The notes: generated by a model not told the origin, from the letters alone. Counted from the first letter of the stretch, positions 1 to 64,000 are shown. The stretch is 64,000 nt of DNA from Raillietiella orientalis (GCA_036172245.1 JAYWIR010000074.1:62001-126000); one strand, 5' to 3'. Translations and numbers: made by a program.

Positions 1-1719
1 GGGCCGGACGGTCGGACTGGATTCGCTTGGGGATCCCCACGGGCAGGTACATCGAGTACCTTGGCGTTCCGTTGGGGGACTTCTGCTCTGCAGAAGCCTG
101 GTCCGGCCGTCTACAAAAGGTGGAGCTGGCGATCGGCCCGTTCCGGGACGGCAAGTTCCACTTGTAGGAACGGGCCACGGTATGGAACGCTTTCGCGGCA
201 CCCCTCCTTCGCCCCCTACTTTTTGTGTGCCCTACCCCGTACCAAGTCAGGACACGGACTAGGGGCCTTATACGGAAAGCCCTCTGGGGCAACCGGCGGC
301 CCCGCGTCCGGCTCAAAGACTTGTGCGCTCCACGCAGGGACGGTGGACTTGGTCTCCTGACGTTGGAGCGCATGGAGCGACAGCTCCAATTCAGAAAACT
401 TGCCCTTGTGGCAAAGTTTTAGACAGCACCCTGGTGTGCACCAGCAAGACTCCTTGCTCACAGGGCAACCGGCTGCTTCGAATTGACTTCAATCCTGGTA
501 GCCAAGGAACGCAGCCTGAACCATTGTGGTTATCAGCTGCGGGATTTGGTTGCTCTGATGAGAGACCACCCTTGGATCTCCTGCATCCCAGCGGACTGGA
601 CTACCTGGCTTCAGGAGTCCGTATCCGCATGGGCGAAGATCAATGGCACCAGCGATGAGGACTTCTCCTGCCTCTGCAGAGGGAGGCACGCTGGTCAGCT
701 ACTCCAGGAGATCGTTTCCAGCCCACGGAAACTTCTGTGGGCTTCCTTCACCCCCCTTGCCCCAGTGCTGCCCTCCCTCAGTTAAGTTCGGGACAGCAAC
801 CAACAGGCATCGTATGAAGTGTCCTGTCTCATCGGAGGCAGGAAGAAATCACTGAAGGCGTGGACGCCGAGGGAACTAGCGGACGCTAGTACCCCGAGTG
901 TCCCGCCGAACGGACTTTTACGCTGGGGCGCGCTACTCGGTATACCTCCGGAGGAGGTGAAGTGGCCCCCAGCGTCATGGGACAACGGCACCCTTCCCCT
1001 GCAGTGGCAGGAGACGACGTTGCTTCTGCCCCACTGGGGACCTTTAAGCAGAGCACGCCTGTCTCGCTGGACATCGGGGAATGTGGATGCTAGTTGTGCA
1101 GAGTGCGGGGAAAGCGAGACCTTCCCCCACTTGATTCTGGAGTGTGTTGCCCTCCACGAAATGTGGGACAGACTCTCGACGATCCTCAACATTCCGGAGG
1201 GTGACCCAAAAAATTTATTCAGACGCCTCCTGACGCGAGACGGCTTGTTAGCCTCCGGGAGCATAGCAGCACTCTGCTGCATACGCGGTATCCTGGAGAA
1301 GTGGACCGCGTCTAGGAGAGGAAGGACTAGCCGGAATGCCATCCACTGGGCAGCGATCTCCTTGGAGAAAGCGTGCCGTTGACGCCGACTTCAAAAACAT
1401 TTACCGACACTTGTTCGCATCCGAAACCGGATGCAAAGGCCTGCTCACGGCGCACCGTGATCCCCTCCCTCCCTCCTTCTCCCCAAAAACATTGCCCTTC
1501 AGACGTTTTTTTTTTTTTGTTTTGTTTTCTGTTTATTTTCCTTGTCTTGGCGCCAGTGAAGGACTTTATCGGCCTTTGGGTCGATAAACACAAGTGCTAC
1601 TGAACTTCAATGAACGTATGACGTCCAAAAAAGAAAAATTTTAACAACATAGACTTTATTACAAAATTTTGTAATGTCAAAATTTAAGTAATAAAAGCTC
1701 CGTCTAACCCGGGTGAAAA
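1..1719 (+). mobile_element. Element A (famA): 3' part of an L1/Tx1-like LINE (post-RT region, zinc finger, 3' UTR), degenerate
   Basis: YIEYLGVPLG, LKDLCAPRRDGGLGLLTLE and CAECGESETFPHLILEC across broken ORFs; stop in GTGATCCC near 1460; terminal box ccgggtgaaaa at 1709-1719. Confidence 0.93.
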
Positions 1720-4654
1720 ACCTGTGCAGGGGCTGAGCACTCATGGCCTTAAGCGTTTAGTAAGCTCGCAAAGCTGGATTGCCAGACCTGTCTCTCAGCC
1801 CCAGCTTTATATTCCGCCAGGTTGCGGACGTCGGGATTCCTGGAGTGAGTACGGGCGTGTAGGAACGCACCGACATTCCTGATTCCTAATCCGAAACCTG
1901 AAGCCTTTGCCGAAAGTCGGTGTGGGTAGACGTGTTTTTTATTCCCTCCGCCAGCGCTTGTCTAGGAAGCAACCGGAGTTTTTAGTGTAGTCAGGTGTAA
2001 AGTGTGGGTCGTCGGTGTCCAATGGCAGCCGTGCCAGAAAACACCGTAATGGATGTAGTTGTGAGAGCGGCAAGTCCTCCCACACAACCTACGGCTATGG
2101 GGGCAATAGTTCCTGGAACGTCTTCGCAGCCGGCGAAGACTTGGAGTGAAATGGTAGCCGCCCCCAGTGCAAAGGCCATGGTTGAGGAAGCCGTCTATCG
2201 GGCCTCTGAATACAAGCCATCGCTTGTATACAAGGTAGCCCTTTGTTTGAGGGAAACACGGCGCCATCTTTCAGCAGAGCGCTTCGAAATGCTTATGTCC
2301 GTGAGGAAGACCTGGAAGCTCTGTGCGTGCTCAGCGGGGCGCAGCAGATTGAGCTGGTGTGCAAGAGCATCAGCCTAGTTGATCGCCTGATAAATACCCC
2401 GCTGATCATGGACGGGCGTAAGATCTTCCCGGTGTCAATGGACCACTCGGTAGTGGTCCACTTGACAGGAATATCTAAGCGCATGACGCGCTCTGCCGTC
2501 AATGAGGAATTAAGTAAATACGGAAACGTACACGCTCTGTGGCCGAAGCCTACAATATTTGAGGGCTACGGACGCCACTTCGGGGGCCTCGCCGCAGCAC
2601 GTGTAGCCCCAAAAGACGAAGCGAAGCTTCCCTACAAACTTGAGGTTGCGGGAGAACCGGTAGTCCTCTGGTATGCGGACAAGCCACGGTATTGCGGCTA
2701 CTGCGATGCGGTCGGACACATCCGAAAGAGGTGCCCAAACAGCGTATGCTACTTGTGCGGGGAGAAAGGACACGTGCGTCGTGTGTGCCCTAAACGCCCC
2801 ACTTCGATTCCCTCGGCCGCCAAAAAGGCGCAAGAGAAACGCGCGGGGAAAGAAAAATTGGAAGACCGTGAAACTGGCCGAGAAAAGCTGCCAATAACCC
2901 AAGCTTCAAGCGCGGCATCGGAGAAAAATCTTCCCGAAACCGCAGAGAGAGAACAGGGCTGGCAGCTAGTCAAAGTTAAAAAAGAGAAAAAGGGCAAGCA
3001 TGTCCCGAAGAAAGGAGAGAAGGCGGCGGCCGGAACAAAAGCTCCACCCGTGTCGCGAGTTAAAACTCTCCGAGAATGCACGGTTACGCTGGAGCACATT
3101 GACGTTCCCGCCGACACCAACGGAGGGGATACGGCTTCGATCGATTTTCCCGCCGCGACGAATGCGCGCGAAAACCCACCCACTGCTTGCAAAGAGGGTC
3201 AGCCGGACGACCAAATTGCCGAAACCAAGGACGCAGCCTTCGAGAAGGCCGCCGAGGAGCTTGTGGCAACGCTTGCTGAACGCGAGAACCCTTCGCGAAA
3301 GGGGATGCGTAGGCCGGCATCGGCTAAAGTGGCCCCCGCAGGTGAGTCGGACCGGGAGGCAAGAAGTGCATCCTCCTCTGCGGAAGCACCATCAAGGAAA
3401 GCAAGGCCAAAATCCCAGAAACCCCGATGGTGCATTCCTCCTCCGCGCGAATGGAATCCAATGGAGGAGGATCCAGTGTATGGCAGCGTGGGAGCCCAAG
3501 TCGGGCATCACCCAAGTGCAAAAACCGACGAGCAGGCAACTCCAATGGAGGAAGGTAACCAGAGGTTAGCAATGCCCCCTAAAACCGCCGAACCTGAACC
3601 ACCCGCACCAATGGATGTGGGCCAACAGGTACGAGCAACACCACCTTCGCCCGGGCAGCCGAAGACGTCGGCACGTAAGAAGGATTGGGAGTTGGTGGGC
3701 AAGACGCCAACCCCGTCCAGCGACCCGTTCCAAAAGGTGGCGGAAGCCCCACCGCCAAGTTCCCAGGAAGAACACCTGGACTCGCCTCTCGCCGTCGGAT
3801 CCGCGCGGCCAGTTGGAATGTTAACGGGCTGCGCGACGACGGAAACAGACGAGATACAGCCGCCACCTTGCGAGATTTCGACCTGGTACTTTTGCAGGAG
3901 ATTCACGTGATCGCCGCAAAAGACGCTTAAGAGATCCAAACGATTGCGGGAGGGCGGTTGTACTGGCGATGCGGCGCCCGCAACGCTCGTGGGGTCGCGT
4001 TCTTCCTAAAGCCAGCCTTTAACGCGGCCGTGAAGGGCGTGCGCTTTGGGGACGACGGACGGATCGGCCAACTGATTCTCAGATGGTCCGATTCGATCGA
4101 CCTCATCGTCACCAATGTGTACGCTCCTAGCGGTAAACAGGGATACCAGCAGCGCAACGCGTTACTGGAAACCTTGAAGCGCGAATGGCTGGTGGAAGCG
4201 GACGTGCGAAAGGCGCATCTGATAGCAGGGGATTTCAACGTCCGTCTGCTCTCAGATCAGCCCGGAGCACAGGGGAACGCGATCAACGAGTTGTGCGCCG
4301 CCATGCGCGCGCGCAACTTGTTGACAGAAATAAGCGGGATGGTCAGCAGCGTGGACCACGTCTTCCTCGACGAAGACCTGTGCACACGGGACGGAAAACG
4401 AGAGACTCTTGGATCGACGCAGTCGGAACATTCCCGGTTATAATTCAAGATGAGCAGGCGCGACAAAGGACCGCCATCCAGGGATTGGCGTATGCCAGTG
4501 GACTGGACGCACCTGTCAGGAGCGAAAGAACATCTTCGCGAATTCCTGAGAGGCGTCATCCTCCAGAGTCTCGCGAATCGAAACCTATTTATGTACTCGG
4601 TCTGGGAGTTATGCGAACAGTTTTCTGTGCAAAGTCTGCCCCGGGGATTCGGCG
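1720..4654 (+). mobile_element. Element B: 5' half of a LINE (leader, ORF1, APE), cut in the APE-RT linker by element C
   Basis: ORF1 from ATG 2022 with knuckles CGYCDAVGHIRKRC and CYLCGEKGHVRRVC; APE motifs SWNVNG, QE, NVYAP, GDFN, VDH; ends at LPRGFG. Confidence 0.93.
2022..3910 (+). pseudogene. ORF1 (gag-like nucleic-acid-binding protein, 2 CCHC knuckles) of element B, frameshifted near 2240-2290
   Basis: ORFs 2004..2378 and 2243..3910; homologous to the other ORF1s here; the original stop was probably near 3772. Confidence 0.85.
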
Positions 4655-7600
4655 TTGTCACCCGGGTACGCCCGGGGCGTTTATTTGTAAACTCTGTACG
4701 CATGGTTCGAGGCCCCACCACGGCCCTAAACACAAGACCTGTTGGGAGACCGGGACGCAGCCCGACGTGGCACTCCCCGACAGCGAAGGGGGATGGGAAG
4801 AAAAAAAAAATAAAAATGAAAAAAGAAACAAACAAAAAGAAGTTGGAGGGCAGGGAAGGGATCACTGGTCGCTTTGGGGAGGGACCATCCGTCGAACGAA
4901 GCCCTCGAGGTCAGTCTGCATATTCTTCAGTTGTGGCCATCCGGCAGCTCTTTGCAAGAAGCGTTTGGCATACGGGATGACATCCCTCGCCTGTGGACCC
5001 ACTCCTTCGTTGTTGGCGTCGCTCCATGCCCCCACGATGCCACGGACGCAGCACAAGGCTGCGATGGCTGCGGCTGGCTGCAGTGCGTCCTTCACGAAGA
5101 GGGGCCGAAGAACGTCTCTGGGGGTGCTGCCCGTAGGGAGCCCGAGGGTCGTCCCGAACCGTTCCCAAAAGGGTCGGAGGGCAGCACAATCCACAATAAG
5201 GTGGGGAAGCGACTCCCGCTCCCCGCACCTGGCACACGCAGGATCCACAGCTCCCCTCGTCCAGTGGAAGCGGCGCGCGTTGCAGGGTAGACCCCAGTGC
5301 AACAAAAGCAACGCCGACTCTTACCACTTGAGGGGTAGGATCCTGGATTCCTTCATCACCGGGGGCCACTTCAACTCATCCCTGGGGATGGCGAGCAGCT
5401 CGCCCCATCTTAATAATCCTCTCGGCTGGACGCTCGGGGTCGTGGCGTCGGCCAGTTCTCCTGTTGTTTAGCCGCTAATCAACTTCTCGCGTCCCTCGAT
5501 GCGGCAGCAAACTTGCCAACTTGGAGTCCGGCTGCTGTGAAGTGCCCTCCTCAGGAAGGGCAGCGCCGTAGCTAGGCAGATCTTCTCTGCCCACGTGCAT
5601 CTTGCTGGACTGTCCAGGAGATTCCGCAGCGTGCAGCGGGCGTAGGGGCTGTATCGGAGACGATTCCACAATTCGTGGCTCCTCTGGTTGACCGCTGCCT
5701 ACGTTCCAATATTCTCCTCCAGCCAGGCGGGGTAGTTGTCAGTGCAGCAAACCATCCAGCTGTTCTCCTTGGCCAATGTTGCCGTGCGCCCGAGCCGTAG
5801 GCCGCATCTTCGTATCTTCCGGCCACGGCTCACAAGAAAAGATGCGAGTCCATCGCTCCTTGACACACGACTGGAGAGGAGGCGGGTCGGAGTACACCAA
5901 GGGGTGCTTCACATCTTCGCTGCGATGGCGAGGGTTCGCCACAGCAGCTGTTTTTCCACGCGCTCCAGCGTCAGAAGGCCAAGATTGCCGTCCCGATGCG
6001 GAGCGCACAAGTCCTTCAAAGGGACTCGCGGTCTCCCTTTGCCCCAAAGGGCGAAACGGAGGAGGTCCTTTGTCCTCGTCTCCGATTCCACGGTGGGGGG
6101 GCATACAAAGAGCAAATGGCGGAGGATAGGGGCCGCGAAGGCGTTCCAAACCGTTGCCCGTTCCGGCAAGTGAAACTTGCCTCCCAGGAACGACGCGATG
6201 GCCGTCTCGACTTTTTGGAAGCAGCGGGACCACGTTTCCGCAGGGGAGTAGCCCCCCAACGGCACATGAAGGTAGTTGAAGCACCTCGCCGTGGGAATCC
6301 GCAGACGGTCCCAGTCCTGCTGCCCTGCCTGCGTCGCACCTATTGTCACCACCGACGACTCTGCCCTGTTGACCTGCAGTCCTGTCCCGCGACTGGAAAG
6401 ATCGAAGAAGTCTCCGACCGCCTTTGCCGGGGTGGACATTGGCAACAAGAGCAGAAGATCGTCGGCGTACGCTGCTACGGCGGGCGTGCCGGGGCACGAG
6501 CTCGGCAAGGGGGCCAAAGTCACCCTGTACGCTCTCAGCACCAACTCAAAGTAGGTGCTGAAGAGCAGGGGGCTGAGGCTTCCTCCCTGCCTTATGCCCC
6601 GCCGCACCGGCACGCCATACACCTTGTGACCGCTGAAAGAGACGGTAATCATCGCATTCCACCAGCAAGAGCGCAGGTAGGAAATCAGGGAGGGTGGGAA
6701 GCTCATGCGACCCAGGAGCTTGAAGAGTAGTTCCTTGTCTACACAGTCGATTGCCTTGTGGAGGTCGACTGCGAGCGTTGGGGCCCCCTTCCTCGCCCGA
6801 GGTTTCCTTCTTTGCCCGGCTGGCGGCCCCAATGTGGGGTTGCCGACTTTCCCTATCCCTTTCTTCTCTCTTCTCGGCAGGTGAACCCATGTGATTGCGA
6901 AGAAGAGGTTGGCATCCATGCTTTACCCGGGAACAGCATAAGTCTGCTCCGGGCTAATTACGGATTGTGCCACCTGCCCCAGACGCGAAGCCCATAGCCC
7001 TGCTATTAACTTGGCGTTCGTATTCACGATCGTGATTGGATGCCAGTTCTTTAAATCTCTGAGGTCTCTCCCTTTCGGAAGGAGCCTCACTCTGGCTGAC
7101 GGAACCGAGGCGGGAACATCGCCTTCGTCTCGAATCAGCCTGATCAACTTAAGCAACAGGGGCGTCAGCTCTTCCGGAAAGCTCTGAAGGAACTCTGCGG
7201 GCAAGTTATGTTCCCCTGGAGCTTCGCGCCTCTTGAGCCTTTTGATACCGGCGGGAATTTCGCCGGTGGTAAAAGGCTCGTCGAGGCTTTCTATCTCCTA
7301 CTCCCTTATTGCCGGGGCGCCATCCGGAAGCAAGCGGCGAGAAGCGTCTCGATCCGGGGGCTCCCTGGCGTAAAGGGAGGAATAAAAACTCCGCACGAGA
7401 TGCCGTACCGACGCCGGGGACAAACATTCCCGCCCCTGGTCGTCCAACAAGCTGGCCGACCCGGATTGCGAGGCTTTGCGTTCGGCCCTGGCGCGGTAAT
7501 CATCCAGGCGACGAAGATTAAAGGTTCTCTCGTACCTACGAGCATGTAAATAGGCCCGATGGTTGCAAATGCCCTTGGCGAATCCGGGGGGCAGGCGGTC

Positions 7601-7672
7601 TGAGTGGAACTGTCCACAGATCTCCCGGAGCGAGGCCTTAAAAAGGTCTTAATTTCTAAGATTCTGGAGCGT
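4655..7672 (-). mobile_element. Element C (famC): LINE lacking its 5' part, linker-RT-zinc finger-3' UTR
   Basis: ORF 5909..6919 has DLHKAID, QGGSLSPLLF, YADD; CARCGERESLPHLIVDC; terminal box at 4655-4665. Confidence 0.95.
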
Positions 7673-10600
7673 CCAGCGGACGTGTCTTTTTGCTGCTTTT
7701 GAATTTCATCTCCGTTGGTGCTTTTGCGTGGTGTGGGTGGAGGATTAGGCAGCAATGTCTCATACCACCACCGGTGAGGATCCCAAGGCGATGACCTCAT
7801 TGCCGCCGGAGGAGATGGAGGTGGGGGATCCCGCATCAGTGAAGGCTACCGCCAGCACGGATGCGCCCTTGTCCCTAACCAGGGCTTAGAACGCCGAGGC
7901 TGCGGCACCTACGCCAGCGGCTATGGCGAAAATGCGCGCTTACCTGGAGGAGGTGTGTAACCCATTCCTTCTATATAAGGTAGACGGTCTATATTCTCCT
8001 GGGAACGCGCGCGCTTTCTCGCAGGCGATGCGCGTTCTAGGCGTACAAAAAGAGGAGCTTTTGGCTATGTCCGTCAGAAGCGGTGGTCAATTTGTGGAAG
8101 TTATCTGCAAGGAGGCAACTCTTGCGCAAAGACTTCTGCGGACCCTTGTAATTATGGGGAGCCGGAGGCTTCTCCCAATTACTGAAGACCGGTCGGTGAT
8201 CATTCACCTGACCGGTATCACGTTCCGGATGACGAAGGAGGCTGTCCGGAACGAATTAGAAAAATTCGCAACTGTCCGCGCGCTGTGGGGTGAGCCTACG
8301 TTTTTTGTTGATTACGACGGGGTGCTTGGCAACCTGGGTGCAGCGCGAGTAACGGTCCGCGAAGCGTGTGAGTTTTGCCACAAACTCACCGTCAACGGTG
8401 AGTCCACTGACGTCGGGTACGTGGGGACACCCAAGTTCTGCGGCTGCTGCAGCAGCTTTGGTCACCATAAAATGACGTGTCCGAGCGTGCAGTGCCAGCA
8501 ATGCAAACAAGCGGGGCACACCCGTCTGGTGTGCCCCCAAAACACAGACCGCGTCGTGTCCGCAAAAAACGCAAGGAAGAGCGCGGCTAAAAAAAGAAAG
8601 AAGATGCCAACTCGTGCTGCTGCTTAGGAGGTTAGCTCCGCCACCAAGGCGAAGGCCAGTCCCGAGACCCCGGCGAAAAACGCCGAAAAGGTCGAGGGTG
8701 AGGGTCAAGACCCAGGGTGGCAGAAGGTCGACCCCAAGAAAAACTCCCATAAGAAGGGATAGAACGTGGCGAGACGGAGCGAAGCCGCTCTGCGCCGCGA
8801 AAAAATTAAAAGCTGCTGCGTCGTTGTAGAGGGAATTGCCTCCATCGACGAATGCGGCGCTAAAGAACTCGCTGCTGCCCCTGCTCAACCCTCCGTTGAC
8901 AAAGTCAACAAGGAGGGGAGCGAGGCGGCGGCGTCCGTCATCGAGCCCACGCTCGATGACGTCGCTTTCAAGCGCGCCGCGGAGGAGCTGGCTGCCTCGT
9001 TGCAGCCGGTCGCCCCCAAGGCTGGCAAGAAGGCCGTGAGGCGTCCGGCCTCCCCTCAGGAATTCTCCACTTCCGTCCTTGAGGTGGAGGCCGGAAGCAC
9101 AGCTTCCATCTCCAGCGCAACCCGCAAAAAGGCTGTACGAAAGTCCACAAAGCCCAGGAAGATCGTCTCCTTCGACGAAGGGGAAGAGATGGCTTCCGGC
9201 TGCGAGGGTGCGATGAGCGTGGGAAACTCCCGGGACCCGTCGCCGAGAGAATCATACGCTCCGGCACGGAGGGGATGGAGGGGGTGGAGGCCGAACAAGT
9301 GCCCCTGGTGCCTGAAGAGGCCTCCGTCCCCATGGACATACCCAACACCTGCCCCGCGGCAGGTGGGGCAACTCCTCCTTCCCAGCAATAAAGCCGGGAA
9401 TCGCCTCCCGTCGTCGTCTGCTGATCGCCTGCTGGAACGTCAACGGGCTAAGTTACGACGGCAAGAGGGGTGACGTTGCCGCCACCCTGGCATCCTTCGA
9501 CCTGGTGCTGCTGCAGGAGATCCACGTGATCTCCGCAGATCAAGCCCGGGAGATCGAACGGATCTCGGGTGGTCGGCAGCTGTAACGCTGCGGTATTGCA
9601 AAATCTAGCGGTGTCGCCTTCCTGCTCCGGCCAGCCATCGAGACCACAATAAAGGACGTACGGTTTTATGACGCAGGTCGCGTCGGTCAGCTGACTCTCA
9701 GCTGGTCCGAATCAATCGACCTGGTCGTCACCAACCTGTACGCTCCTAGCGGTAAGGAAGCATTGAGGGCGAAGGCAAGAAGAGAATTCTACCTTGCCCT
9801 CGGAAGCGATTGGCTGATCGAAGCAGGTGTTCGCAAAGCGAACCTGATAGCAGGTGTCTTCAACCTGCGCCTGCTTTCAGGTGCGCCGGAGACACTGAAC
9901 GACCGCGTCAAAGAGTTGTGCGCGCAAATGCACACGTACAGCTTGCTATCCAAAGATACGGACATGGAACGGAGCATCGATCACGTGTACCTTGACCAGC
10001 ACCTATGCTCTCGCGTGGGCAGGCGCGGCAAGTTCCCGTCCCAGCTGTCGGACTATGGCCGAATCGTGTTCGAAGTGCATCCGCGCGACAAGGGTCCCCA
10101 ATCGTCAGCGTGGCGTCTACCACGGGACTGACTGAAGTACCCGGATGCGGCGAAACATCTCCGCGCGTTCATACGAAACTTAAGAATGCGCACGCTTCAG
10201 GACAGGGACCGCTTCAACCGGTCGTTCCAGGTGTTCTGCGACCGATTCCCTTTGCAACGCCTACCTGCGGGATTTGGGGAGGGGCCGCGTAACGAAAGGC
10301 GCTATCTTCAGGCCCGACGTTACGCGAGAACCCCCGACATGCGCAGGTTAGCAGTGTATCGAGCGGGAGCCGAGAGGCAAGCCTGGCAATCCGGGTCGTC
10401 CAGCTTGCTGGAGGACCAGAGCCGGGAGCACTCGGCTCCTTCTCAGAAGCGCGGGATTGTGAAGAAATTTTACTCCTCCCTGTACGCCAAGGCGCCTCCG
10501 GAGCGAGACGTCTCACGAGTTCTGCTTCCGGAAGGTGCTCCAGCGATTGGGGAGGAGGAGAAAAGGAGCCTCGACGAGCATTTCACGATAGACGAGATTA

Positions 10601-15676: not shown

Positions 15677-15755
15677 TTGTCAACCGGATATGCCGGGGCA
15701 TTTTTTATTCTAATTTGTTACAAAAATTAGATAATAAAGTCTTTTAAAAGATTTC
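15677..15755 (-). mobile_element. Element A2: ~80-bp 3'-terminal remnant of a famA LINE
   Basis: Reverse complement resembles the last 80 nt of A4 (48341-48420), including tgccccggcatatccggttgacaa. Confidence 0.85.
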
Positions 15756-20502: not shown

Positions 20503-21578
20503 CACGTTCGAACGGTAGTGCCTGGTTGCAGGAAACCGTTCGAACGTGGGGACAGTTCGGAATGCAACGCTCCCCACAGGGACGAAGGTTCCTGTTTGGA
20601 GGTTACAGAAGTTGCACGCTTTGTGAGTTCCTGGAGGATCCAAAGAAGAGAGCGTGGGCATGAAGAACCCCCCTTGCTGCCGCGCTGCCCTACCTGATGG
20701 AAGATCTGGACAGCGATGTTGCGGCGAAGTGAGAGGTTACAGTTGCAATCTTCGGGAAGGAGAAGAAGATAGGAGAGTGGAAGGCGGGTTAGCTATCTGA
20801 CGCTGCCACCCCGAGTATGCCTTCTAATAGACTTCTTCGCTGGGGCGCGCTGCTTGACGTTCCCATCGAATGTCTGAAGTGGCCCCGGTACATATGGACA
20901 CCTTCACTGTCCCCTTCAAATGGCAGTAGTTGGCTCTCCTGGTGCGGCACTGGGGACTCTTCTGCAACGCCTGCCGACGCCAATGGACCTGTGGAACGGT
21001 GGACCTCAATTGCGTCCGGTGTGGGGAACGGGATTCCCTTCCCTACCTGCTTTTGGATCGTGTTGCCCTTTGGCCCCTTTGATTCCGCTTCGCCGCGGCC
21101 ATTCGAATCCCCTCCGACAACCCCAGGGACGCTCTGAAATCCCTCTTCGTTGCCGACGCCCTTTGGCCAGCGGCCTTGTTAGCAGCCCTGTTCTGCCTAC
21201 GCGGGATCGTCGCCGCCTGGAGCAAGGCTACGGGAGGACCACACGACCAGGGTGTTATCCAGCCAGCCTCCGAATTCCTGAGGAGGGCGTCGCGATGGCG
21301 TCACCCGGATCCAAGCATACAGCATGAGCTTGCCGGCATCCTGCAAAGGATGGAATGGCTCCACTAGCTACAGTGATCCCTTCCTGGTCGATCTCAATCA
21401 TTCTTTTCTTTTTGTTTTGTTTCTTGTTTTTTTCCTCTTTCCCCCTCCGCCGTGGTGGACCGTACCTTTCTGCGAACTCTGTGTTTCTTCGTTCGTTGCT
21501 GGGCAATGGTCCAGCCACTGCACTTCTTTTTTAAAGTTTATTGTTTCTGTAAAGGCCCCAGGAAAATCCGGGGGAAAA
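20503..21578 (+). mobile_element. Element H (famH): 3' part of a LINE
   Basis: Collinear with element O (62430-63519); zinc-finger remnant; terminal box ccgggggaaaa 21568-21578. Confidence 0.9.
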
Positions 21579-24340: not shown

Positions 24341-24379
24341 TCATGTGTAGTGGCGTATGCTTAACCGTTTTAGGTTCAG

Positions 24380-39310: not shown

Positions 39311-39342
39311 AAAATCCGGCTTTAGGACTAAAGCCGGATTTT
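39311..39342. repeat. Perfect 15-bp inverted repeat with a 2-nt spacer
   Basis: aaaatccggctttag-ga-ctaaagccggatttt. Confidence 0.95.
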
Positions 39343-54000: not shown

Positions 54001-54355
54001 AGGGCCAGAACCGTAAGATTCTGGAGCGTGACGCCTCTCAGAATTTGCAAAGGTGTTCCTTCGCATCTGACAGTCGCTTTTAGTCCCCCGAAAGACGCCA
54101 ATCCCTAAATAACGGTCCCTTGTCGCGAGGCCGCATCTCGGAAATTAGCCAAGAATGGTGCGACAGCGTCGACGCAATCTTCCTACATTTGCCGACCCGT
54201 GAACATAGGTCAGCTACGGGGAAGAGTGTGGTCGATGCTGCAGTCCATTCACCTCTCTCCCTCGAACAAGTTGCGCGCACGCATGGAGGCGCACAACTCG
54301 TTCATCGCGTTCTCTTGTGTTTCTGGCTCACCTGTTAGCAGACGGAGATTGAAAT
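51014..54355 (-). mobile_element. Element L (famC): ORF2 from APE (D)FN to 3' end
   Basis: ORF 53019..53807 (KAPGEDR, DLHKAFD), YADD, zinc finger; terminal box 51014-51024; closely similar to C. Confidence 0.95.
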
Positions 54356-56521
54356 TTATCACCCGGTCACGCCTCGGCGTTTATTAATAATAATAAACTG
54401 GTCAGACACAATGTCCTCAACCAACAGAACGACAGAGAACATAGAAAAATTACCGGCACGCAGGCGTGGGAGGAATGAGGGGAAACAATCAAAAATCAAA
54501 AACTGGAGGGAAGGGTAACAAATTTTTGGATAGGCTCCGTACTCACGGGGATTTATACGATGAGCACCTGAAATTTTCCGGAGCCTATAGGGACGCGGGT
54601 GTAAAATGAAAATACAAAATTAGTTCATGGAGGGTGAGGCAATGATCACCGGGTTGTCCGCTGCTGAGGGTGTGTAATCAGGCGGTGTATTGCGGCGAGA
54701 TTCCTTTTTGTCTCTTCTGTCAAATGAGGTTATCTAACGCATGCTCCTATATAGAAGGATGCTTTGCTGATTACCTCTTGGTGCTGTCCGTTGATTGCCA
54801 ACGCCTGGCGGACGGAAACTATCGCGCGTTTGCAACCGATGGTTGCAATCCTTGCGCTTAGGGACAGCCCGCTCGGCGTGAAGAACCGTCGCAGCAAGTC
54901 TCTTGCGCTGTCCACGGGATGCATTAGTGCTGTTGCCAGCCTACGGCACAGTCCTTGTAGGACACTGCAGTCCAGAAGTAGGTGCGGAATCGACTCCGAC
55001 GATCCGCACCGAACGCAGTTCGCAGACGTAAGTCCCCCGGAGTCACGATGCCAACGCTCGTTGCACTGAAAACCCCAGTGAACAAAAAGCAGCACGGCTT
55101 GTTTCCAAGCAAGGGGGAGCAGCGAACTGTCAATACACTGTGGAGGGACTACAAGTTCTTCGGGGGGGGCAGCAAGTTCTTCTGCCCACCGGAGGAGTCC
55201 CTTTGCAGTAACACGAGGAGTGGCGGCGTCCGCCTACTCACTCGTCTTCCAGGCGCCAAGGAGTTTGGTTTTTCCCGCTATCGTGCAACTCGCCGGTAAG
55301 TAACTGTCGTTTCTCGCCCTGCGGGCAGACAGCGCTGCGGCAAGAGGCGTGGCAGCCAGAGTAGAAAACTTCACCTCGTCCTGCAGTACTTCTTCCAAGG
55401 ATCGTGGAAAATATTGGCGCAAAAGGCGAAGATCTTCAGGGCGTATTTCTTGGAACGCCGTCCAGGATTCAACAGACTCCTGCCGCCCAGCTTGAAAGTT
55501 CATTGGGCGGCAGGAGATCCACGAGTGAGCTTCCAGAAGTGCGGTCAACTGCCGCAATGGAAACCGAAACCCCGCTTCCTGTATTGAGTGCCCGGCAAAA
55601 GCAAGAGAAATCCTCCGCTGCCGTCGCATCTCCGCAGGAGAATGCCAGCTGACACACACAGAAGGGATGTCCATAGCTGGGCACACAGTGCCAGCAGTCG
55701 GAACTGCACCTGCAGTCCGATTCGCTCCATTGTCAGTAAACCCAAAACAGCAGCCCAACGCGGAGCTAACAAATCTTTAAGGCGGATCCTGGATCTCGCC
55801 GGACCCCAGAGAGCGTTCCTGAGCAGGCGTTTAGCCCGCTGTTTCGCCGTATAGGGGGACTCCAAAACAAAAAACAGGGGACGGACGAGCGGGGCCACAA
55901 AGGTGTTCTAAATAGTCGCCCGTTCCTGCAAGGTGAACTTGCCGTTAAAGAACGGTCTGATGGCCAAATCTGCTTCCCGAAGACAGTCCGCCCACGCTTT
56001 GCCTGCGCCGAAAGCACCCGACGAAACGCCAAGGTACTTGAAGTACCCGCCCGTAGGGATCCCCAGGCGGATCCAGTCGGACTGCCCCTCCCACGACGTA
56101 CCCACAGGAACGATCGCGCTCTTCTCTCTGTTCACGCTCACGCCCGCTCCCCGACGAATCAGGTCGAAGAAATCCTCGACACTGGACGCCGCGGTGCACA
56201 TGGGGTGCAGAAGAAGCAGGTCATCAGCGTAGGCGGCCACGGCAGGCGTTCCCGTGCAGGAGCTTGGCAAGTGAGACAGCGTCAGCCTGTATGCTCTTAG
56301 CACCAACTCAAACAAGATGCTTCATAGCAACGAGCTTAAGCTGTCGGCCTGGCGGATGCCCCTACGAACGGGAATACCATACACGCGGCAGACGCTGAAA
56401 GTGATGCAGTCTAGCGCGTGGCGCCAGCACGCGCGCAAATATCAGCAGGAGTTGCGCCGGGAACCCAAGGCGTTCCACATGCTCTAAAAGCAGCTTCTGG
56501 TTTACGCGGTCGAACGCCTTG
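54356..56521 (-). mobile_element. Element M (famF): 3' half (KAFD to 3' end) of an element whose upstream part is P
   Basis: YADD (55908..56315), CVRCGSSESIPHLLLDC; terminal box ccgggtgataa at 54356-54366. Confidence 0.93.
56510..56521. repeat. Target-site duplication, left copy
   Basis: tcgaacgccttg versus tcgaactccttg at 63520-63531. Confidence 0.8.
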
Positions 56522-59500
56522 CGTCCTTCACGGTGGACGTGTTTTCTCGGTGCTCCTCGTGCCAGGAAGTCTCCTTCAGAGCGAGCGTCGTATGTTTCAG
56601 AGGTGGATCAGGCCGCGATGCCTGACGCGAACATCAGGGATGGCCAGGGGGCAGCGGCAACGCCGTCCCAAGAGGAGATGGAGGTGGGGGCATTCGCCCC
56701 CACAGAATCGGTTCCCGCTGCAGGGCGGGCGTGGAGCGCCGTTGTGTCGGCGCCATCGCCTACAGCCGCGGCGGAATTGTCGGCCAATGTAGAGGAGGGG
56801 TACAACCCCTCATTGTTCTACAAGGTAAGCAATTTATATTCTTTAGAGAGCGCGCGCGCATTTTCGAAAGGCATGCGCGCTCTCGATGTGAAAGAGGAGG
56901 AGCTCAGCGGTATGACCATTCGCAGCGGGGTCAGTACGTTGAGGTCATCTGCAAACATGCAGAGCTGGCACAAAGACTGCTTAAAATCTCCTTGTGATGG
57001 AGACGCGCAGGCTCCTCCCCACTACGGCGGACCGCAGCGTAGTGCTCCACCTGTTAGGCGTAACTGCGCGAATGCGCAAAGAACAGGTTCGCGCAGCTTT
57101 GAAACAGTTCGGAACGGTCCAAGCGCAGTGGACGAAAGTAAGTCCTTTCGAGGACTACACGGGGCCGCAACACGGCCTCACTGCTGCGCGCGTGACCGTT
57201 CGGGAGGGCTGCACTCTTCCCCACAAACTGGTGGTCGAAGGCGAAACCGTCGACTTCTGGTATGTGGGGAAGCCGAAATACTGTGGCTTCTGTAATACGT
57301 CGGGCCACCTTAAAAAGAGGTGTACCAATGTGCAGTGCCAAGTATGCGGAGCCATGGGACACACGAGGGAGGTGTGCCGTAAAGCAGCAGTGAGGGTGGT
57401 TTTTAAGAGAATCCTTAAAAAACGTGCCCCGCTTCTGCAGAAAAGGCTGGCAAGGAAGCTGCCGCGAAGGCTGTGCTACCCGCGCCCAAGGCCCAGGCCG
57501 CACCCGAGACCCCGGCGAACAACGCCGAACAAGTCGAGGGAACAAGCAGGGAGTCTAAGTGGCAGGTATCTACGGCCATAAAATCAAAGAAGGAGAGGAG
57601 GATGGAGAAAAAGCTCGCGTATTGCCAGAAAAAACAGCAGGCAAGCGAGCAAATTAAAGAATGCAGCGTTGTCGTCCAGCGTATTCCTCACCGCTGCGAA
57701 AAAGAACTCGTCGCTACCGACGACAACCCCTCTGTTGACTCTGTCAACAGCGAGGGGAGCGAGCCGGCGGCGGCGTCCGTCATCGACACCACCATCGATG
57801 ACGTAGCCTTCGCGCGAGCCGCGGAGGAGCTGGAAGCCTCGTTGCAGCCAGAACCCTCCAAGGCTGGCAAGAAGGATGTAAAGCGTCCGGCCTCCCCTCA
57901 GGAGTCCCCCACTTCCGACCCCGAGTTGAAGACCGGAAGCGCAGCCTCCGTTTCCACGGCACCGCGCAAGAAGGCTGGACTTAAGTCCACAAAGCCAAGG
58001 AAGCTCGTCTCCCCCGTCGAAGGGGAAGAGATGGCTTCCGCAAGCGAGGGTGCCATGAGCGTGGGAAAATCTCGGGACCCATCGCCCGAGAGACTTTCAC
58101 GCGCGGACACGGAGGGATGGAGGGAGTAAAGGCCGAACAGGTGGCTCAGTTGCCTGAGAAGGCCGAAACCCCCATGGACATCCCGCCTGGCTCGCAAGAG
58201 GAGGGCTCCATCACACCTTAATCTTCCCAGCAGTAATGCCGGGAATCTCCTCCCGCCGTCGTCTCCGCATCGCCGTTTGGAACGTGAACGGCATGACAGA
58301 CACCGGTAGGAGACCAGACATGGCCGCCCTTCTGGAGTCCTACGACCTTGCGCTGCTGCAGGAGATCCACGTGATCTCTGCAGAACAAGCGCAAGAGATC
58401 GAACGGATCTCCGGAGGGCGGCTGTGGTACAGGTGTGGGAGAGCGAAAAGTTGCGCTGTCGCCTACCTGCTTCGGCCAGCCGTCGAGGCCGCGGCTCGGG
58501 GCGTGGGGTTCGACGATCACGGTCGTGTCGGCCAGCTGACTCTCAGGTGGTCCAAATCGATCGATCTGATCGTCACGAACGTGTGCGCACCGAGCGGCGC
58601 GGACCTGATGACCAGGAGGGCAAGGAAAGACTCTTTCTTTGCCCTCCGGCAAGACTGGCTGACCGAAGCAGGCGTGCGGGATGCCCATCTGGTTGCAGGC
58701 GATTTCAACGTTCGCCTGAAACCAGATGGGCAGAATTTCGAGCGTGACCTGGTCAACGAGGTGTGCATGGCGGTGCACACCTGTAAATTGTTGGACAGTG
58801 CACCGAGGATGGAAGACAGCATTGACCACGTGTTTCTTCACGAGCACCTGTGCCCTCACGTGGGCAGGCGCCGCAAGTTACCGTGCGTGCTGTCGGACCA
58901 TCGCCCGCTGGTCCTCGAGATCCATCCGCGCGACAGGGGCCCCCCTCGTGAGCGTTGCGTCTCCCAGGGGACTGGCTGGAGCTCCCGGACGCGGCGGAAC
59001 ATCAGCACACGTTCATACGGAGCTTCAGACCGCGAAAACTCCAGGATTGGGACCGCTTCAAGCGGTCGGTCCTGGAGTTCTGCGACCAGTTCCTTCGGCA
59101 CCGCCTACCTACGGGTTTTGGGACCGGGGTCCGTAACGAACAAGCCTACCTGCAGGCCGGTCGTTACGCCAGGACCCACGACATCCGCAGGCTGGCAAAT
59201 TACAAAGCGGGAGCCGAGAAGCAAGCCTGGCAGTCCGGATCGGCCAGCTTACTGGACGATCAGGGCCAGGAGCACTCGGCACCTGCCCAAATCCGCGACC
59301 TGCTGCGGAGTTACTACTCCTCCCTGTATGCCAGGGCACCTCCGGAGAGGAACGTATCACGAATCCTGCTTCCGGAAGGCGCTCCAGCGAACGGGGAGGA
59401 GCAGACAAAGACCATCGACGAGCCTTTCACGATGGACGAGATCCTCTCGGCCATCGGAAAGCTCAAGAGGCGAAAGGCTCCATGAGAGGACCGCCTGCCC

Positions 59501-62051
59501 GCGGAGTTTTATCAAACTTTCGCGGCTGAGCTTAGCCCCCTGGTACAGCAACACACCTTGCTGATACGCGAAACATGTGACGTTCCCGCCTTGTTTCGTT
59601 CGGCAAAGGTGCGGATCCTCCCTAAAAAAGGAGATCTGAGGAGCATGAACAACTGGCGTCCGATCACAATAGTGAATTCGGCAGCCAAGTTGATAGCCAA
59701 GATGTGGGCAGAGCGTTTGGGACGCGTTGTCAACATCGTCATCAGCTCGGAACAGACATATCCTGTTCCCAAGCGAAGCATGGAGGCGAACCTGTTCCAC
59801 GCTTCCACCTGGCTAGAGCTCCAACATGAAAGGAGCTTGGTGCGCAGCCGGAATTCCGGTGCGTGCGCCGGCAAGGGGTTGGATGGTCGGGTGGGGAAGG
59901 GAGCACTTGCGGTCGCAATCGACTTGCGGAAAGTATTCGATTGCGTCGACCAGAATCTCCTTCTAGAGCTTCTGGAACGCTTGGGCTTCTTGGACTCATT
60001 AGTGGCCTATCTGCGCTCCTGCTGGCGCGAAGCGCTCATCAATGTTACTTTCAGCGGGCAGACCGTGCACGGCGTGCCGGTGCGGCGTGGGATCCGGCAG
60101 AGAGACAGCCTGAGCCCCTTGCTCTTCAGTACCTACTTTGAGTTGGTACTGAGAGCGTACAGGGGAACTCTGGCGCATCTGCCGCACGACTGTGCCGGTA
60201 CGCCGGCCGTTTCAGCATACGCGGACGACCTTCTGCTGCTGCTCCCTATGTCCACCCCGGCTGCGGCGGTCAAGGAGTTCTTCGACCTGCTGCATCGGCG
60301 AACCGGACTTACGTTGAACACGGCGAAGTCGTCCGTGATGCCAGTTGGTGTGGCGTGGGCAGGGCAGCAGGACTGGGTCCGTCTGGGTATCCCCACGGTG
60401 AGGTGCATCAAGTACATCGGTGTGCCGTTGGGGGACTTCTCTCCTGCGGAAGCGTGGTTCAGCTGCCTCCAGAAAGTCGAGACGGCGATCGGCCCGTTCC
60501 TGGAAGGCAAGTTTCACTTACCGGAACAAGCCGTGGTTTGGAACGCCTTCGCGGCCCCCAACCTCCGCCCCTTGCTTTTTGTTTGCCCCGCCCCCGTGGA
60601 ATCAAAAAAGCGGACTGAGGACCTCCTCCGCATAGCTCTTTGGGGCAAGGGGAGGCCCCGAGTTCCTTTGGAGGACTTGTGCGCTCCGCGTTGGGACGGC
60701 GGTCTCAGCATCCTGACGCTGGAGCGCGTGGAAATCCAGCTGCGATGGCGGACCCTCGCCATCGCAGCGAAGATGTGGAGCACCGCTTGGTGCATTCCGT
60801 CCCGCCTCCTGGCCAGGCGTGTGTTCCGCTGCGAAGGACTCGCATCGTTTCTTCTGTGCCCTGGCCGGAAGATTAGAAAATGCGGTCTAATGCTCGGCCG
60901 CATGGCATCCCTGGCAAAGGAGAACGACTGGATGCTTTGTTACCCTGCCAACTCCTATGCTTGGCTGGAAGAGACTGCTGGCACCTGGGCGAAGCAGAAC
61001 CAAAGGTGCGAAGACCGGATGAACTGCCTGCGAGTCGGCTTATACGCCCGCCGCACTCTTCGTGAAATTCTTGAATTTCCACCGAGTTGCACGTGGGCGG
61101 AAGGCACACCCCTTGTTACGGCGATGCCCTTCCTCCAAAGGGCGCTTCACGGAAGCCGGAAGCCAAGGTGGCAAGTCTGCTGCCGTATCGCAGGCAGAGA
61201 GAAGATGATGAGCGGCTGGACCATGGGAGAGTTGACAGATGCAACGACCCCTAGTCTCCAGCCGCGTGGATTAAGAAGATGGGGCGAGCTGCTCGGCATT
61301 CGATTGGATGACCTGAAGTGGCCCCCGGTTCTACTTGGATCCAAGATTCTCCCCCTGAAGTGGCAAGAATCGGCGCTTCTGTGGCTGCATTGGGGTCTAC
61401 CCTGCATCGCGCGTTGCTTCCACTGGACGCGGGGAAGAGTAAATCCTGCGTGTGCCAGGTGTGGGGAGCGGGAGTCGCTCCCCCACCTCTTAGTCGAATG
61501 CCCTGCCGTCCGGATTCTTTGGGATCGTCTGAAAACGGCCCTCCGGATACCGGATTTGGTGGCAATGTTGAATGTATCTTCAGTCTTGTCTTCGTGCGGG
61601 ACGCTCTCAGTCCAGCCGCAGCCCTGGCAGCACTTTGCTGCATTCGTGGTATCGTGGCGGGCTGAAGTGATGCCGAAGATGAAGACTGCATCGTGAGGGA
61701 CGTCATCGAGTATGCTTCGCGCTTCCTGCAGAGAGCTACCCGATGGTCCCATCTAGGAAAGCTGAAAATGGAACTAGAAGGCATCCTGCAAAGGATGGGC
61801 GCTCCCAGCAGTTTTCTGTGATCCCTTCCCGGCCCTCCAAACTTTTTTTTTTTTTGTGGTTTGTTTTTCTATTTTATTTTATTTTTGTTTTTTCCCCCTT
61901 CCCCCTCCACTGCCGAGGAGAGCCACACCGGGCTGCGTCCCGGTGTCCCGGCAGTTTCCGCATTCGGTGGCCGTCAGTGGGGCCTTGTATTACGTTCTGT
62001 ATTGACCGTTGAAATGTTTTTAATAAACGTCCCGGCGTATCCGGGTGGCAT
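56522..62051 (+). mobile_element. Element N (famD): full-length (~5.5 kb) LINE, best preserved copy in the window
   Basis: ggacgtgtttt 56535; ORF1 knuckles; TAATG 58234-58238; APE; 712-codon RT stretch; stop ~61820; terminal box ccgggtggcat 62041-62051. Confidence 0.96.
58236..61820 (+). pseudogene. ORF2 of element N: APE endonuclease, reverse transcriptase, CCHC zinc finger; a few frameshifts and stops
   Basis: WNVNG, QE, GDFN, IDH, SDH; NWRPITIVN, DLRKVFD, QRDSLSPLLF, YADD, KYIGV; CARCGERESLPHLLVEC. Confidence 0.94.
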
Positions 62052-63519
62052 CGCCCCCTGCTTTTTGTTTGCCCCATCAGAGAGAGAATTAAAAAGCGGA
62101 CAAAGGACCTCCTCCGTATCGCTTTTTGGGGCAACGGGAGGGCCCGAGTCCCCTTAAAGGACTTGTGCGCTCCTCGTCGGGATGGTGGTCTAGGCCTCCT
62201 GACGCTGAAGCGGCTGGAACTTCAGCTCCAGTACCGATTGTCGGCACTGGTTCCAGAGTTGTGGTGCACCTGTTGGTGTCTCCGTGCACGTCTCCTTCTC
62301 CAGCAAGCCACCGGCAAGACGGGACTGACGTCGTTTCTTGCACTCCGTCGCCGCGTCAACCGATGCGGACTCCAGCTACGGAGGGTGGCTGCGCTGTACC
62401 GGGAAAACCCAGGATTGCTTACCTGTCGCCCTTTGAACGGTTGTGCCTGGTTGCAGGAAACCTTTCGAACGTGGGAACAGTTCGGCATGCAACGCTCCGA
62501 ACAGGAACGAAGGTTCCTGTTTGGGGGTTACAGAAGTTGCACGCTCCGCGAGATCCTTTAGGATCCTAAGAAGAGGGAGTGGACAGGAAGAACCCCCCTC
62601 GCTGCTGCGCTGGACTCCTTAGTGGAACATCAGGACAGCGATGCTGAGGCGAAGTGGGAGGTTACAATAAAAATCTCCGGGAAGGAGAAGAAGCAGAGAG
62701 AGTGGAAGACGGGCCAGCTAACTGATGCTGCGACCCCGAGTACGCCTCCTAATGGACTTCTGAAGTGGGAAGCGCTGCTGGATGTTCCGATTGAACATCT
62801 GAAGTGGCCCCTGATTCTTATGAACACTTCCATCCTCCCCCTAAAATGGCAAGAGTCGGCATTCCTGTTGCAGCACTGGGGACTCCCCTGCAACGCCCGT
62901 CGACACCACTAGACCTGGGGAGCGGTGGATCCCAATTGTGTAAGGTGCGGGGAACGGGAGTCCCTCCCCCACCTCCTAGTGGATCGTGTTGCCCTTCGGC
63001 CCCTTTGGTTCCGCTTTGTCGAGGCCATGGGAATCCCCTGCGGCAACCCCAGGGACGCACTGAAAGCCCTCTTCGCTGCTGACGCCCTTCGGCCAGCGGC
63101 CTCGTTAGCAGCTTTGTGCTGCCTACGCGGGATTGTCACCGTTTGGAGCAAGGCTACGGCAGGACAACGCGATCAGGCTGCCATCCAGCCAGCCTCCCAG
63201 TTCCTGAGGAGGGCGTTCCGATGGCCCCACCTGGATCCAGGAATACAGAAGGAGCTTGCCGACATCCTGCAAAGGATGCAACGTCCCAACTAGCAACTGT
63301 GATCCCTTCCCTTACCCTGCCAACTTTTTTTTTCTTTTTTGTTTTGTATTTTGTATTTCTTCCTTCCCCTCCTGCCGTAGTGGACCGTACGGGTCTGCGA
63401 ACCGGAGACCCGGCAGGCTCCGTGTTTGTTCGTGCGTGGCTGGAGCAATGGTCCAGCCACCGCACGTCTTTGTAAAAGTTTATTTTACAATAAACCCTTC
63501 GGATAAATCCGGGTGAAAA
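62052..63519 (+). mobile_element. Element O (famH): 5'-truncated LINE
   Basis: RPLLFVCP, LKDLCAPRRDGGLGLL, CVRCGERESLPHLLVD; terminal box ccgggtgaaaa 63509-63519. Confidence 0.93.
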
Positions 63520-63531
63520 TCGAACTCCTTG
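63520..63531. repeat. Target-site duplication, right copy
   Basis: Matches 56510-56521 at 11 of 12 positions. Confidence 0.8.
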
Positions 63532-64000
63532 TGGAGATCGACCGCGAATGCCAACGCTCCCGGCGTTCCGTCCTGCCGTCGGGGCCTGTTCTCGCCTGCG
63601 GCAGTGACTTTTTGAGCAGCCTGGCTTTGCTGCGCCACAACTTCCTGCAGCTGCATCCATGTACGCGCGAACAGCATGTTCCCTTCCATGGATTGTCCCG
63701 GAACGGCGTACGTTTGTTCCGGGCTCACCACAGATTTCGCGATACTTCCTAACCGCGCGACCGACAGCTTCGAAAACAACTTGACGTCCGAGTTCATCAA
63801 GGTGATAGGACGCCAGCTGTTAAGTTGACACAAGTCTCCGGCTTTCGGCAAAAACCGCACCTTCGCTGAACGGAAGGAATCCGGGACATTCCCGGATTCA
63901 CTCATCAGCGTCGCGAGTTTCAGCATCAAGGGAATGAGCTCCACTGCAAAGCACTGATAAAACTCTGCAGGAAGCCCATCCTCGCCTGGCGACTTTCGTC
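63520..64000 (-). mobile_element. Element P (famF): RT N-terminal part continuing beyond the window; upstream half of M
   Basis: KSPGEDG, SWRPITLMNSD, GTPGALAFAVDLHKEFD; reading continues into M at KAFDRVNQ. Confidence 0.92.

Follow-up and report, generated by a model that had tools for sequence, protein, structure and literature searches.

The question raised by this locus is whether several families of long interspersed nuclear elements (LINEs), crowded together in one stretch of the genome of Raillietiella orientalis (GCA_036172245.1, JAYWIR010000074.1:62001-126000), have used fixed points in each other's coding sequence as sites of insertion, as was proposed in an initial annotation of that DNA. 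The whole stretch, 64,000 nucleotides (nt) in length, is here called the window, and positions are counted from its first letter. Within it lie two LINE clusters (1-24345 and 40715-64000), rich in guanine and cytosine (GC), in which 13 element 3' ends bearing a shared terminal box were mapped; all 13 of them adjoin LINE sequence, the pattern of self-nesting in which new copies lie within pre-existing LINE copies. Three classes of these junctions fall in coding sequence, and the analysis supports them as independent, nucleotide-precise and family-associated insertions into other LINEs.

The elements display the organization of LINEs of the apurinic-endonuclease (APE) type. Searches against Pfam identified, in the second open reading frame (ORF2), an N-terminal apurinic-endonuclease-like domain (PF03372, Exo_endo_phos, E=5.5e-9 on 58158-59564) followed by a reverse transcriptase (RT; PF00078, RVT_1, E=1.5e-18 on 59486-61696), and matched the CCHC knuckle of such elements (PF00098) on the first open reading frame (ORF1) at 2210-3910. 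A second ORF1 that was checked (43924-45774) returned no Pfam match, and CX2CX4HX4C strings are visible in the translations of several ORF1s.

The 13 junctions, each named for the element whose 3' end lies there, are as follows; a slash within a motif marks the point of joining.

A0, junction at 1721: adjoins the 5' end of G
C1, junction at 4657: on G, antisense, at G[FY]G
D, junction at 13198: on h3, antisense, at G[FY]G
A2, junction at 15675: at the 5' terminus of h3
F1, junction at 18621: on H1, sense, at GD/FN
H1, junction at 21578: on Cx, antisense, at KAFD
A3, junction at 22094: on Cx, at its 5'-truncated end
R, junction at 41520: on an H-like ORF1, antisense
A1, junction at 48422: at the 5' terminus of h2
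C2, junction at 51016: on h2, antisense, at G[FY]G
K, junction at 54355: on C2, sense, at GD/FN
Y, junction at 62051: on H2, sense, in an RT block
H2, junction at 63519: on K, antisense, at KAFD

The initial annotation had assigned 10 of the 13 junctions to four recurrent classes, and the mapping of all 13 ends bears out that count, with three junctions at G[FY]G, two at KAFD, two at GD/FN and three at 5' termini; A3, R and the end that it called 'N' (62051, which corresponds to Y) fall outside the four. Its further claims, that the register within the three coding classes is identical to the nucleotide and that the hosts belong to different families, were borne out by alignments with uninterrupted copies and by identity matrices, respectively. 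At the G[FY]G linker, C and D join, as antisense guests, the sense-strand nick after GG(N)TTYGGNGWT, and all three hosts (G, h2 and h3) stop at one column of an alignment with five uninterrupted copies. Elements of the H family join, again in antisense, after AAGGMGTTCGAT at the KAFD motif of RT, where both hosts, Cx from the C family and K from the F family, end TTCGAT/. Members of the F family join in sense at GA/TTTCAAY, within the GDFN codons of APE, and both neighbors (H1 after F1, and C2 after K) begin TTTCAAY. Guest and host are of different families in 7/7 of these coding-site events, five of which are antisense (across all 13 junctions, orientation is mixed, with six antisense and seven sense), and insertion at the same nucleotide in the same orientation, the behavior of sequence-specific LINEs, is seen for C (2/2), H (2/2), F (2/2) and D (1/2).

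If the 13 junctions were placed uniformly, 0.007 coincident pairs would be expected by chance; the probability of at least four coincidences is approximately 1e-10, or 2e-7 with a tolerance of ±3 nt. For the way in which families assort among sites, p=0.029 over seven events. One element of the original proposal did not survive this examination, namely that the targets are the most conserved codons of related LINEs: in a scan of 12-nt intervals, using an alignment unweighted for relatedness, the G[FY]G site falls at percentile 34, KAFD at 80-87 and GDFN at 72-87, and the block at which Y is joined ranks ninth overall. The target sites are conserved, but short of the most conserved.

The count of junctions depends upon recognition of the element 3' end, which is laid out as AATAAA, a stem-loop of 4-6 base pairs, CCGGGTGR, and then 1-6 A-rich bases, with AATAAA positioned 23-24 nt before the end of the box. 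The box is degenerate: 12 of the 13 ends display 0-2 mismatches to CCGGGTGA, and R is without its second half. The bare 10-mer of the box is not enriched in the window (90 matches, with 71 expected). A profile trained on 12 ends located by eye, with R left out of training, recovered 12/12 of those ends in a search of the window, and also recovered R (41555-41530, E=0.0025); because the search added only that end and one weak match, the 13 ends are taken to be the full count. The weak match, at 7567-7588 on the plus strand (nhmmer E=0.024), lies antisense to the G[FY]G region of C1 itself and reads AAATGCCC..ATCCGGGGGG; ATCCCCGGGG is also present in the flank of G, and the resemblance to the terminal box may be due to chance. 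A stem-loop is predicted in 11 of the 12 ends that were folded.

Grouping of the elements from identity matrices over three regions gives at least six families: A (A0, A1 and A3, 69-78% identical), C (C1 and C2, 89-90%), D (D and Y, 95%), H (H1 and H2, 81-84%), F (F1 and K, 67-77%), and R, a separate family related to F. The 5' halves G, h2, h3 and M are attributable to no RT family; h2 and h3 are 75% identical in APE. The presence of six families departs from the form of self-nesting in which one family inserts into itself in tandem orientation. In the order in which they lie (with RT positions in amino acids, aa, and TSD denoting a target-site duplication), the elements are:

1..1721, plus strand: A0, A family, covering RT aa ~292 through the 3' end, with the 5' part beyond the window; box and tail 1708-1721
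1722..4656, plus strand: G, comprising leader, ORF1 2210-3910 (CCHC knuckle) and APE; interrupted following the G[FY]G codons (GGATTCGGCGTT/)
4657..7676, minus strand: C1, C family, with a 5' truncation ~97 nt upstream of the G[FY]G that it carries; 3' box at 4657 abuts antisense G
7677..13198, plus strand: D, a full-length mosaic, H-like to ~11700 and then C-like; 5' start CGGACGTG; box 13189-13198, adjoining antisense h3 at G[FY]G
13199..15672, minus strand: h3, 5' part of a full-length element (ORF1, APE; 5' terminus 15672); cut at G[FY]G (GGTTACGGAGAT/)
15675..15759, minus strand: A2, an 85-nt 3' fragment of the A family; ends 2 nt from the h3 5' terminus
15760..18621, plus strand: F1, F family, RT aa about -70 to the 3' end; box and tail 18610-18621 abut H1 at GD/FN, in sense
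18622..21578, plus strand: H1, H family, begins (GA)TTTCAAC of GDFN; internal deletion at 20501/20507; box 21567-21578 abuts antisense Cx at KAFD
21579..22093, minus strand: Cx, fragment of a C-family RT spanning aa about -18 to 152; interrupted after TTCGAT in KAFD
22094..24345, minus strand: A3, A family, RT aa ~114 to the 3' end; right edge of the first cluster; 3' end abuts the truncated 5' end of Cx in the same orientation
40715..41520, plus strand: H-like ORF1 fragment, 90% identical to 56873-57675; left edge of the second cluster
41520..43962, minus strand: R, F-related, RT aa ~26 to the 3' end; variant terminal box; abuts antisense ORF1
43976..48422, plus strand: M and A1; M starts at 43976, with ORF1 43924-45774 and APE to ~46840; A1, A family, runs from 46896, RT aa ~355 to the 3' end
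48409-48422, plus strand: box and tail of A1, ending 2 nt from the h2 5' terminus
48425..51015, plus strand: h2, full-length element of which the 5' part is present; interrupted at G[FY]G (GGTTTCGGCGTT/)
51016..54354, minus strand: C2, C family, begins TTTCAAT of GDFN; 3' box end at 51016 abuts antisense h2
54355..56521, minus strand: downstream part of K, F family, KAFD to the 3' end; box and tail 54366-54355 abut C2 at GD/FN; 5' TSD copy 56510-56521
56522..60589, plus strand: 5' part of H2-full, comprising leader, ORF1, APE, and RT up to a conserved 24-nt block at 60566-60589
60590..62051, plus strand: Y, D family, 5'-truncated, with 93-96% identity to D; colinear joint at the block; box 62040-62049
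62052..63519, plus strand: 3' part of H2-full, beginning with a second copy of the block (62052-62075); box and tail 63508-63519
63520..64000, minus strand: upstream part of K, RT aa ~1-152, running off the window; 3' TSD copy TCGAACTCCTTG at 63520-63531

The most complete of the coding-site events is found where K is split in two, with its upstream part ending ...DLHKEFD at 63520 and its downstream part beginning KAFDRVNQ at 56521. A 12-nt TSD that covers KAFD (TCGAAC[G/T]CCTTG; 56510-56521 and 63520-63531) lies on both sides of a 6998-nt H2-full insert, and the reading frame of K continues across it, which is proof that H2-full represents a true insertion of an H element into K. This is the one TSD observed; the other three 5' junctions that could be examined are without a host remainder. 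The same insert accounts for the 'family N' of the initial annotation, which is not a single family but a composite of H2-full and Y. Identity between D and 'N' is 70-87% as far as ~60590 and 93-96% beyond it, and the switch lies in the conserved 24-nt block CGCCCCYTGCTTTTTGTTTGCCCC, which occurs twice, at 60566-60589 and, immediately following the 3' box of Y, at 62052-62075. H1 is colinear with 58702-60587 and then with 62432-63530, on both sides of Y, and 'N' is therefore H2-full carrying Y. The latter element lies in sense, its 5' end presumably joined by homology at the duplicated block, and a 736-aa reading frame (59486-61696) reads across the joint.

The mosaic breakpoint in D, at ~11700-11800, falls in the same 24-nt block as that of H2-full and Y. 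Before ~11700, D is 75-86% identical to H; after it, D is 58-88% identical to C and 45-65% identical to H. The element has the appearance of a recombinant family, with an H-like 5' two thirds and a C-like 3' third, and H2-full together with Y displays the same architecture in statu nascendi. The APE of D is H-like (72% identical to H, and 59% to C2), yet D uses the C site; because an H-like APE and a C-like 3' module accompany a C target, the choice of target may follow the 3' module rather than the endonuclease. Two further breakpoints lie near the block: the internal deletion of H1 (20501-20507, RT aa ~367 to 488) begins ~10 nt past it, and the 5' truncation of A1 (46896) lies ~25 nt before it. 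A fourth exact hot spot at RT aa 355-370 was considered and rejected, since the A1, H1 and Y breakpoints, although within ~60 nt of one another, are at different nucleotides.

The fourth class, which the initial annotation described as insertion of the A family into 5' leaders, proved to be a category rather than a register, because the host leader at A0 is not alignable with the other two, while A1 and A2 sit at an exact 5' terminus. The full-length elements D, M, H2-full, h2 and h3, which are of different families, all begin (C)GGAYGTG (at 7677, 43976, 56535, 48425 and 15672, respectively), and the tails of A1 and A2 (…GACAAAC) stop 2 nt before that motif. H2-full has 13 additional bases (CGTCCTTCACGGT) ahead of the motif, including an inverted copy of GGACG. 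Each of the four A ends is oriented as its neighbor, three of them at the 5' ends of G, h2 and h3 and one (A3) at a truncated end, and no host leader lies upstream of any A copy in the window. An acceptor 3' end placed on a donor 5' terminus in the same orientation is the arrangement left by a template jump (the start of the host at A0 is unverifiable, and A3 joins a truncated end), and because the A ends have that position and orientation, such a jump suffices without targeting. The class is best read as its product: on reaching the end of one LINE RNA, RT would move to the 3' end of an A RNA in the course of a single insertion event. A second insertion at the same nick is the alternative. 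At 46840-46896, M (ORF1 and APE) passes straight into A1 (RT from aa ~355) on the same strand, and the pair may represent two elements or a single A-family element that has lost 1.6 kb internally.

The reading that we consider probable is that both clusters are piles of APE-type LINEs of at least six families, in which C/D, H and F insert at family-specific sites in ORF2 and A is added by template jump. The junctions of C/D, H and F would then arise from target-primed reverse transcription at family-specific nick sites, so that a cluster would grow by LINEs entering and disabling other LINEs, and the determinant of the site, to judge from mosaic D, may reside in the 3' module rather than in APE. 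At its core, the site-targeting interpretation of the initial annotation is thereby retained for three classes, with the firmest support in the five antisense events, and is given up for its 'leader' class and for its 'most conserved codons'.

Several observations weigh against this reading. There are only two or three events per class, all in one window, and the argument for the 3' module depends upon the single D/h3 junction. The second D-family insertion, Y, sits at another site, and site specificity is therefore not strict. A few bases at each junction (AAC, ATC and A-runs) are assignable to neither guest nor host; a comparison of the last 400 nt of the guests with 60-nt flanks found no similarity or complementarity (24 tests, all p >= 0.06); and the individual terminal stem-loops are no better than shuffled sequences (z from +0.56 to -2.25). 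The remainder of the host was found for one of four guests with an examinable 5' end (H2-full, and not C1, D or F1), and both F junctions are oriented as their 'host', so that insertion and template jump are indistinguishable there. The expected host remainders are likewise absent at three head-to-head joints of two 5' ends: C1 with D at 7676/7677, A2 with F1 at 15759/15760, and R with M at 43962/43976. The missing halves and these joints might have arisen by large deletions at the target, or by two cleaved ends each priming a complementary DNA, the products then being joined. A 97-nt overlap between h3 and C1, ~55% identical, ruled out the idea that D had split one element, with h3 as its 5' half and C1 as the remainder.

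Two explanations would deny that the coincident junctions represent separate events. Descent of each class from one ancestral junction, by segmental duplication or gene conversion followed by divergence, might be suspected from colinear blastn high-scoring pairs that span host and guest together (3771-7672 with 50130-54029 at 82.8%, and 10222-14184 with 53990-50027 at 71.3%), and from the ~71% identity of D/h3 and C2/h2 on both sides of the junction. However, identity changes in a step at the junction itself, from 52-74% in the hosts (eight 120-nt intervals) to 79-97% in the guests when C1/G is compared with C2/h2, and from 42-68% to 72-88%, or roughly from 57% to 80%, when H1/Cx is compared with H2/K; the ORF1s of G and h2 are just 33% identical, and hosts at 57-64% identity would be too diverged for gene conversion. 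The F pair diverges on both sides of its junction, and its hosts are H1, which is 84% identical to H2-full, whose GDFN is uninterrupted, and C2, a C-family element 56% identical to H1; because these hosts are of different families, the F junction postdates the family split. The last 1450 nt of D are 93-96% identical to Y, which has another flank, and D and C are 70-73% identical, so the D/h3 junction is younger than the D/C split and than any ancestor that it might share with the C junctions. These identity steps, the F hosts and the flanks of D and Y sustain the original argument that duplication of one old junction is insufficient; such descent is highly improbable, and duplication of old junctions is excluded within the window. 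A misassembly of contigs in repeats has a probability next to negligible: the colinear switch at the 24-nt block is a typical place for assembler errors, but after the 3' box of Y the sequence resumes H at the same block, unlike a mis-join, the antisense junctions have a complete 3' box beside unrelated sequence, and contigs of a sequencing run (X1, described below) span the 3' end of K and 20 nt of the same flank, possibly from the same locus.

The remaining explanations accept separate events and differ as to how the site was found. The two sense F junctions (and Y) might instead be template switches, in which RT, copying an H or C RNA, halts at GD/FN and resumes synthesis on an F RNA at its 3' end; the behavior of the A class, a possible microhomology (AAATTTCAA) at the joint, and the failure to locate an upstream half of H1 5' of F1 speak for this, whereas two families with 56% identity would both need an RT stop, or an RNA end, at the same nucleotide, and the 24-nt direct repeat on either side of Y is what insertion with a homology-mediated 5' join would be expected to leave. 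We regard it as a tentative and somewhat unlikely account. Rather unlikely is a flank-guided form of homing, in which the RNA would end a few bases past the box, in the flank of a master copy, and anneal to a nicked homologous site, the target being inherited through the position of the master rather than through protein specificity (with tails AACGCCGAA for C, AAATCGAAC for H and AAATTTCAA for F). R1Bm reportedly uses read-through 28S sequence in this manner. Within C, H and F, the first 9, 7 and 7 flank bases, respectively, are the same despite different hosts; GCGTT is present at both C junctions and at that position in none of five uninterrupted copies; the target follows the 3' module in D; and the placement of AATAAA 23-24 nt before the end of the box would make cleavage some bases beyond it plausible. 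Those common bases, however, lie in conserved codons and could be host sequence, the RNA ends are themselves predicted, no further complementarity between guest and flank was found, and the 5' and 3' TSD copies in K match, which indicates that the target already carried the flank sequence. Generic hot spots, defined by a weak APE consensus ending RWT at the nick plus local structure, with the match of family to site a small-sample accident, would fit the similar ends of the primer strands in all classes (GGCGTT/, GGAGAT/, TTCGAT/, GGCGAT/ and TGAAAT/), the modest assortment over seven events, and the use of two different sites by the D family. A 5-nt consensus would nevertheless be expected ~190 times in 12 kb, yet C, H and F each use one nucleotide in 2/2 cases, and no site in the window is common to H, F and C; we judge this explanation quite unlikely.

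A more ambitious extension of family-specific targeting, put forward tentatively and thought improbable as a whole, is that the elements form a hyperparasitic community, in which each family would possess a heritable address for a rival's ORF2 motif, carried in its 3' module or in a few read-through bases and not in the endonuclease, and would escape its own address, with mosaics such as D produced from sense hits that homology resolves, as in H2-full with Y. Were that so, targeting, competition, the birth of families and the building of clusters would be a single process. The KAFD site of the H lineage itself reads AAAGYATTCGAT and the two sites that were hit read AAGGMGTTCGAT; h2 and h3 read TTTAAC and the GDFN sites that were hit read TTCAAC. 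These may be synonymous differences that confer a form of 'self-immunity', the sample being very small.

The clusters differ in composition from the DNA between them: 1-24 kb and 42-64 kb have a GC content of 54-60%, and the DNA lying between them one of 45-50%. LINE fragments crowd both GC-rich parts on both strands, as located by tblastn with the window's own ORF1, APE and RT translations. The intervening 16-kb spacer (24346-40714) has low GC (45-50%) and a longest reading frame of <=332 aa, and no convincing gene was recognized among its reading frames (24.3-40.7 kb). The clusters stop abruptly against it, at the truncated 5' end of A3 on one side and at a truncated H-like ORF1 on the other. 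Within the spacer, a degenerate remnant resembling RT (32980-33529, plus strand), with 32-38% identity to RT aa 391-574, apparently comes from a LINE that is older or unrelated. Scanning of the window for Rfam families, tRNAs and tandem repeats found nothing. Only 55 relatives of the RT were found in the database, the nearest 64% identical and the others <=29%, and several of them carry zf-RVT (PF13966), a domain of L1-type elements.

Outside the window, a scan of metagenomes for the box pattern returned 14 loci, none of them LINE-related by tblastn or blastn, which are regarded as chance matches. The sequencing run X1 contains 10% of the words, and 681 of its contigs were mapped at 80% likeness, 405 of them less than 90% alike. 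It contains no clean additional junction, most listed joints being colinear switches between paralogues, and no support is drawn from it; one contig has its end 7 nt away from the KAFD site and another covers the 3' end of K with 20 nt of flank, either of which may be the same locus, and the joints 62046>54016 and 48416>49631 are uninterpretable.

If the pattern were true genome-wide, its consequences would be several. The 'safe haven' of a site-specific LINE could be the coding sequence of other LINEs, with families competing by insertional knockout, and this would provide a mechanism of growth for LINE clusters of the type proposed as green-algal centromeres. The community would supply, in nature, related elements whose precise targets differ; mosaic D, which separates the endonuclease from the 3' module, would be useful for understanding target choice by APE-type LINEs and for engineered targeted insertion; and the arrangement of H2-full and Y would directly illustrate how a recombinant family can arise.

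Sequence-specific LINEs of the APE type are known, among them R1, TRAS/SART and Tx1-group elements (for example Tx1L in Tx1D, and Keno in U2), and their targets are rRNA or snRNA genes, telomeric repeats, microsatellites or a DNA transposon. The elements described here share with them nucleotide-precise, orientation-specific insertion into a multicopy target that spares host genes, and differ in that the targets are ORF2 codons of competing LINEs. The HeT-A, TART and TAHRE elements of Drosophila attach to chromosome ends, and their arrays place several LINE families head-to-tail in one niche, like the joints of A with a 5' terminus in the window; those elements are not known to insert into coding motifs, unlike the families in the window, which is without telomeric repeats. 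Template-jump chimeras are also known, from R2 RT in vitro and from U6-L1 retrocopies, and like the A class they set two RNAs in the same orientation, the 3' end of one against the 5' end of the other, with a few extra bases at the joint (2 nt in A1 and A2); the window differs in that the acceptor is an A-family LINE RNA in 4/4 cases.

Also comparable are the L1-type elements Zepp, of Chlorella and Coccomyxa, and ZeppL, of Chlamydomonas, which form GC-rich nested LINE clusters as in the window. In the excerpted accounts, those clusters are said to arise by nested insertion that targets existing copies (PMC8226300, PMC3446292), with a single nested Zepp cluster on each chromosome (Blanc et al. 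2012, PMC3446292), and Cnl1 of Cryptococcus is described as preferring to insert within itself, in tandem (PMC9942834). As far as those excerpts go, Zepp and ZeppL form single-family, tandem arrays of 3' ends, whereas the window holds at least six families in mixed orientation, joined at fixed nucleotides in coding motifs; Cnl1 represents one subtelomeric, tandem family for which, in the same partial sense, neither cross-family nor coding-motif targets are described, unlike the window. A literature search recovered no case of several families each hitting a fixed coding motif of other LINEs, although Zepp might itself have a fixed internal site. The habit of targeting is thus known for single families, and a mixed community of this kind was not seen described. 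On the basis of 13 junctions in one window, we conclude that the arrangement is a real and unusual variant of the site-specific or self-nesting LINEs.

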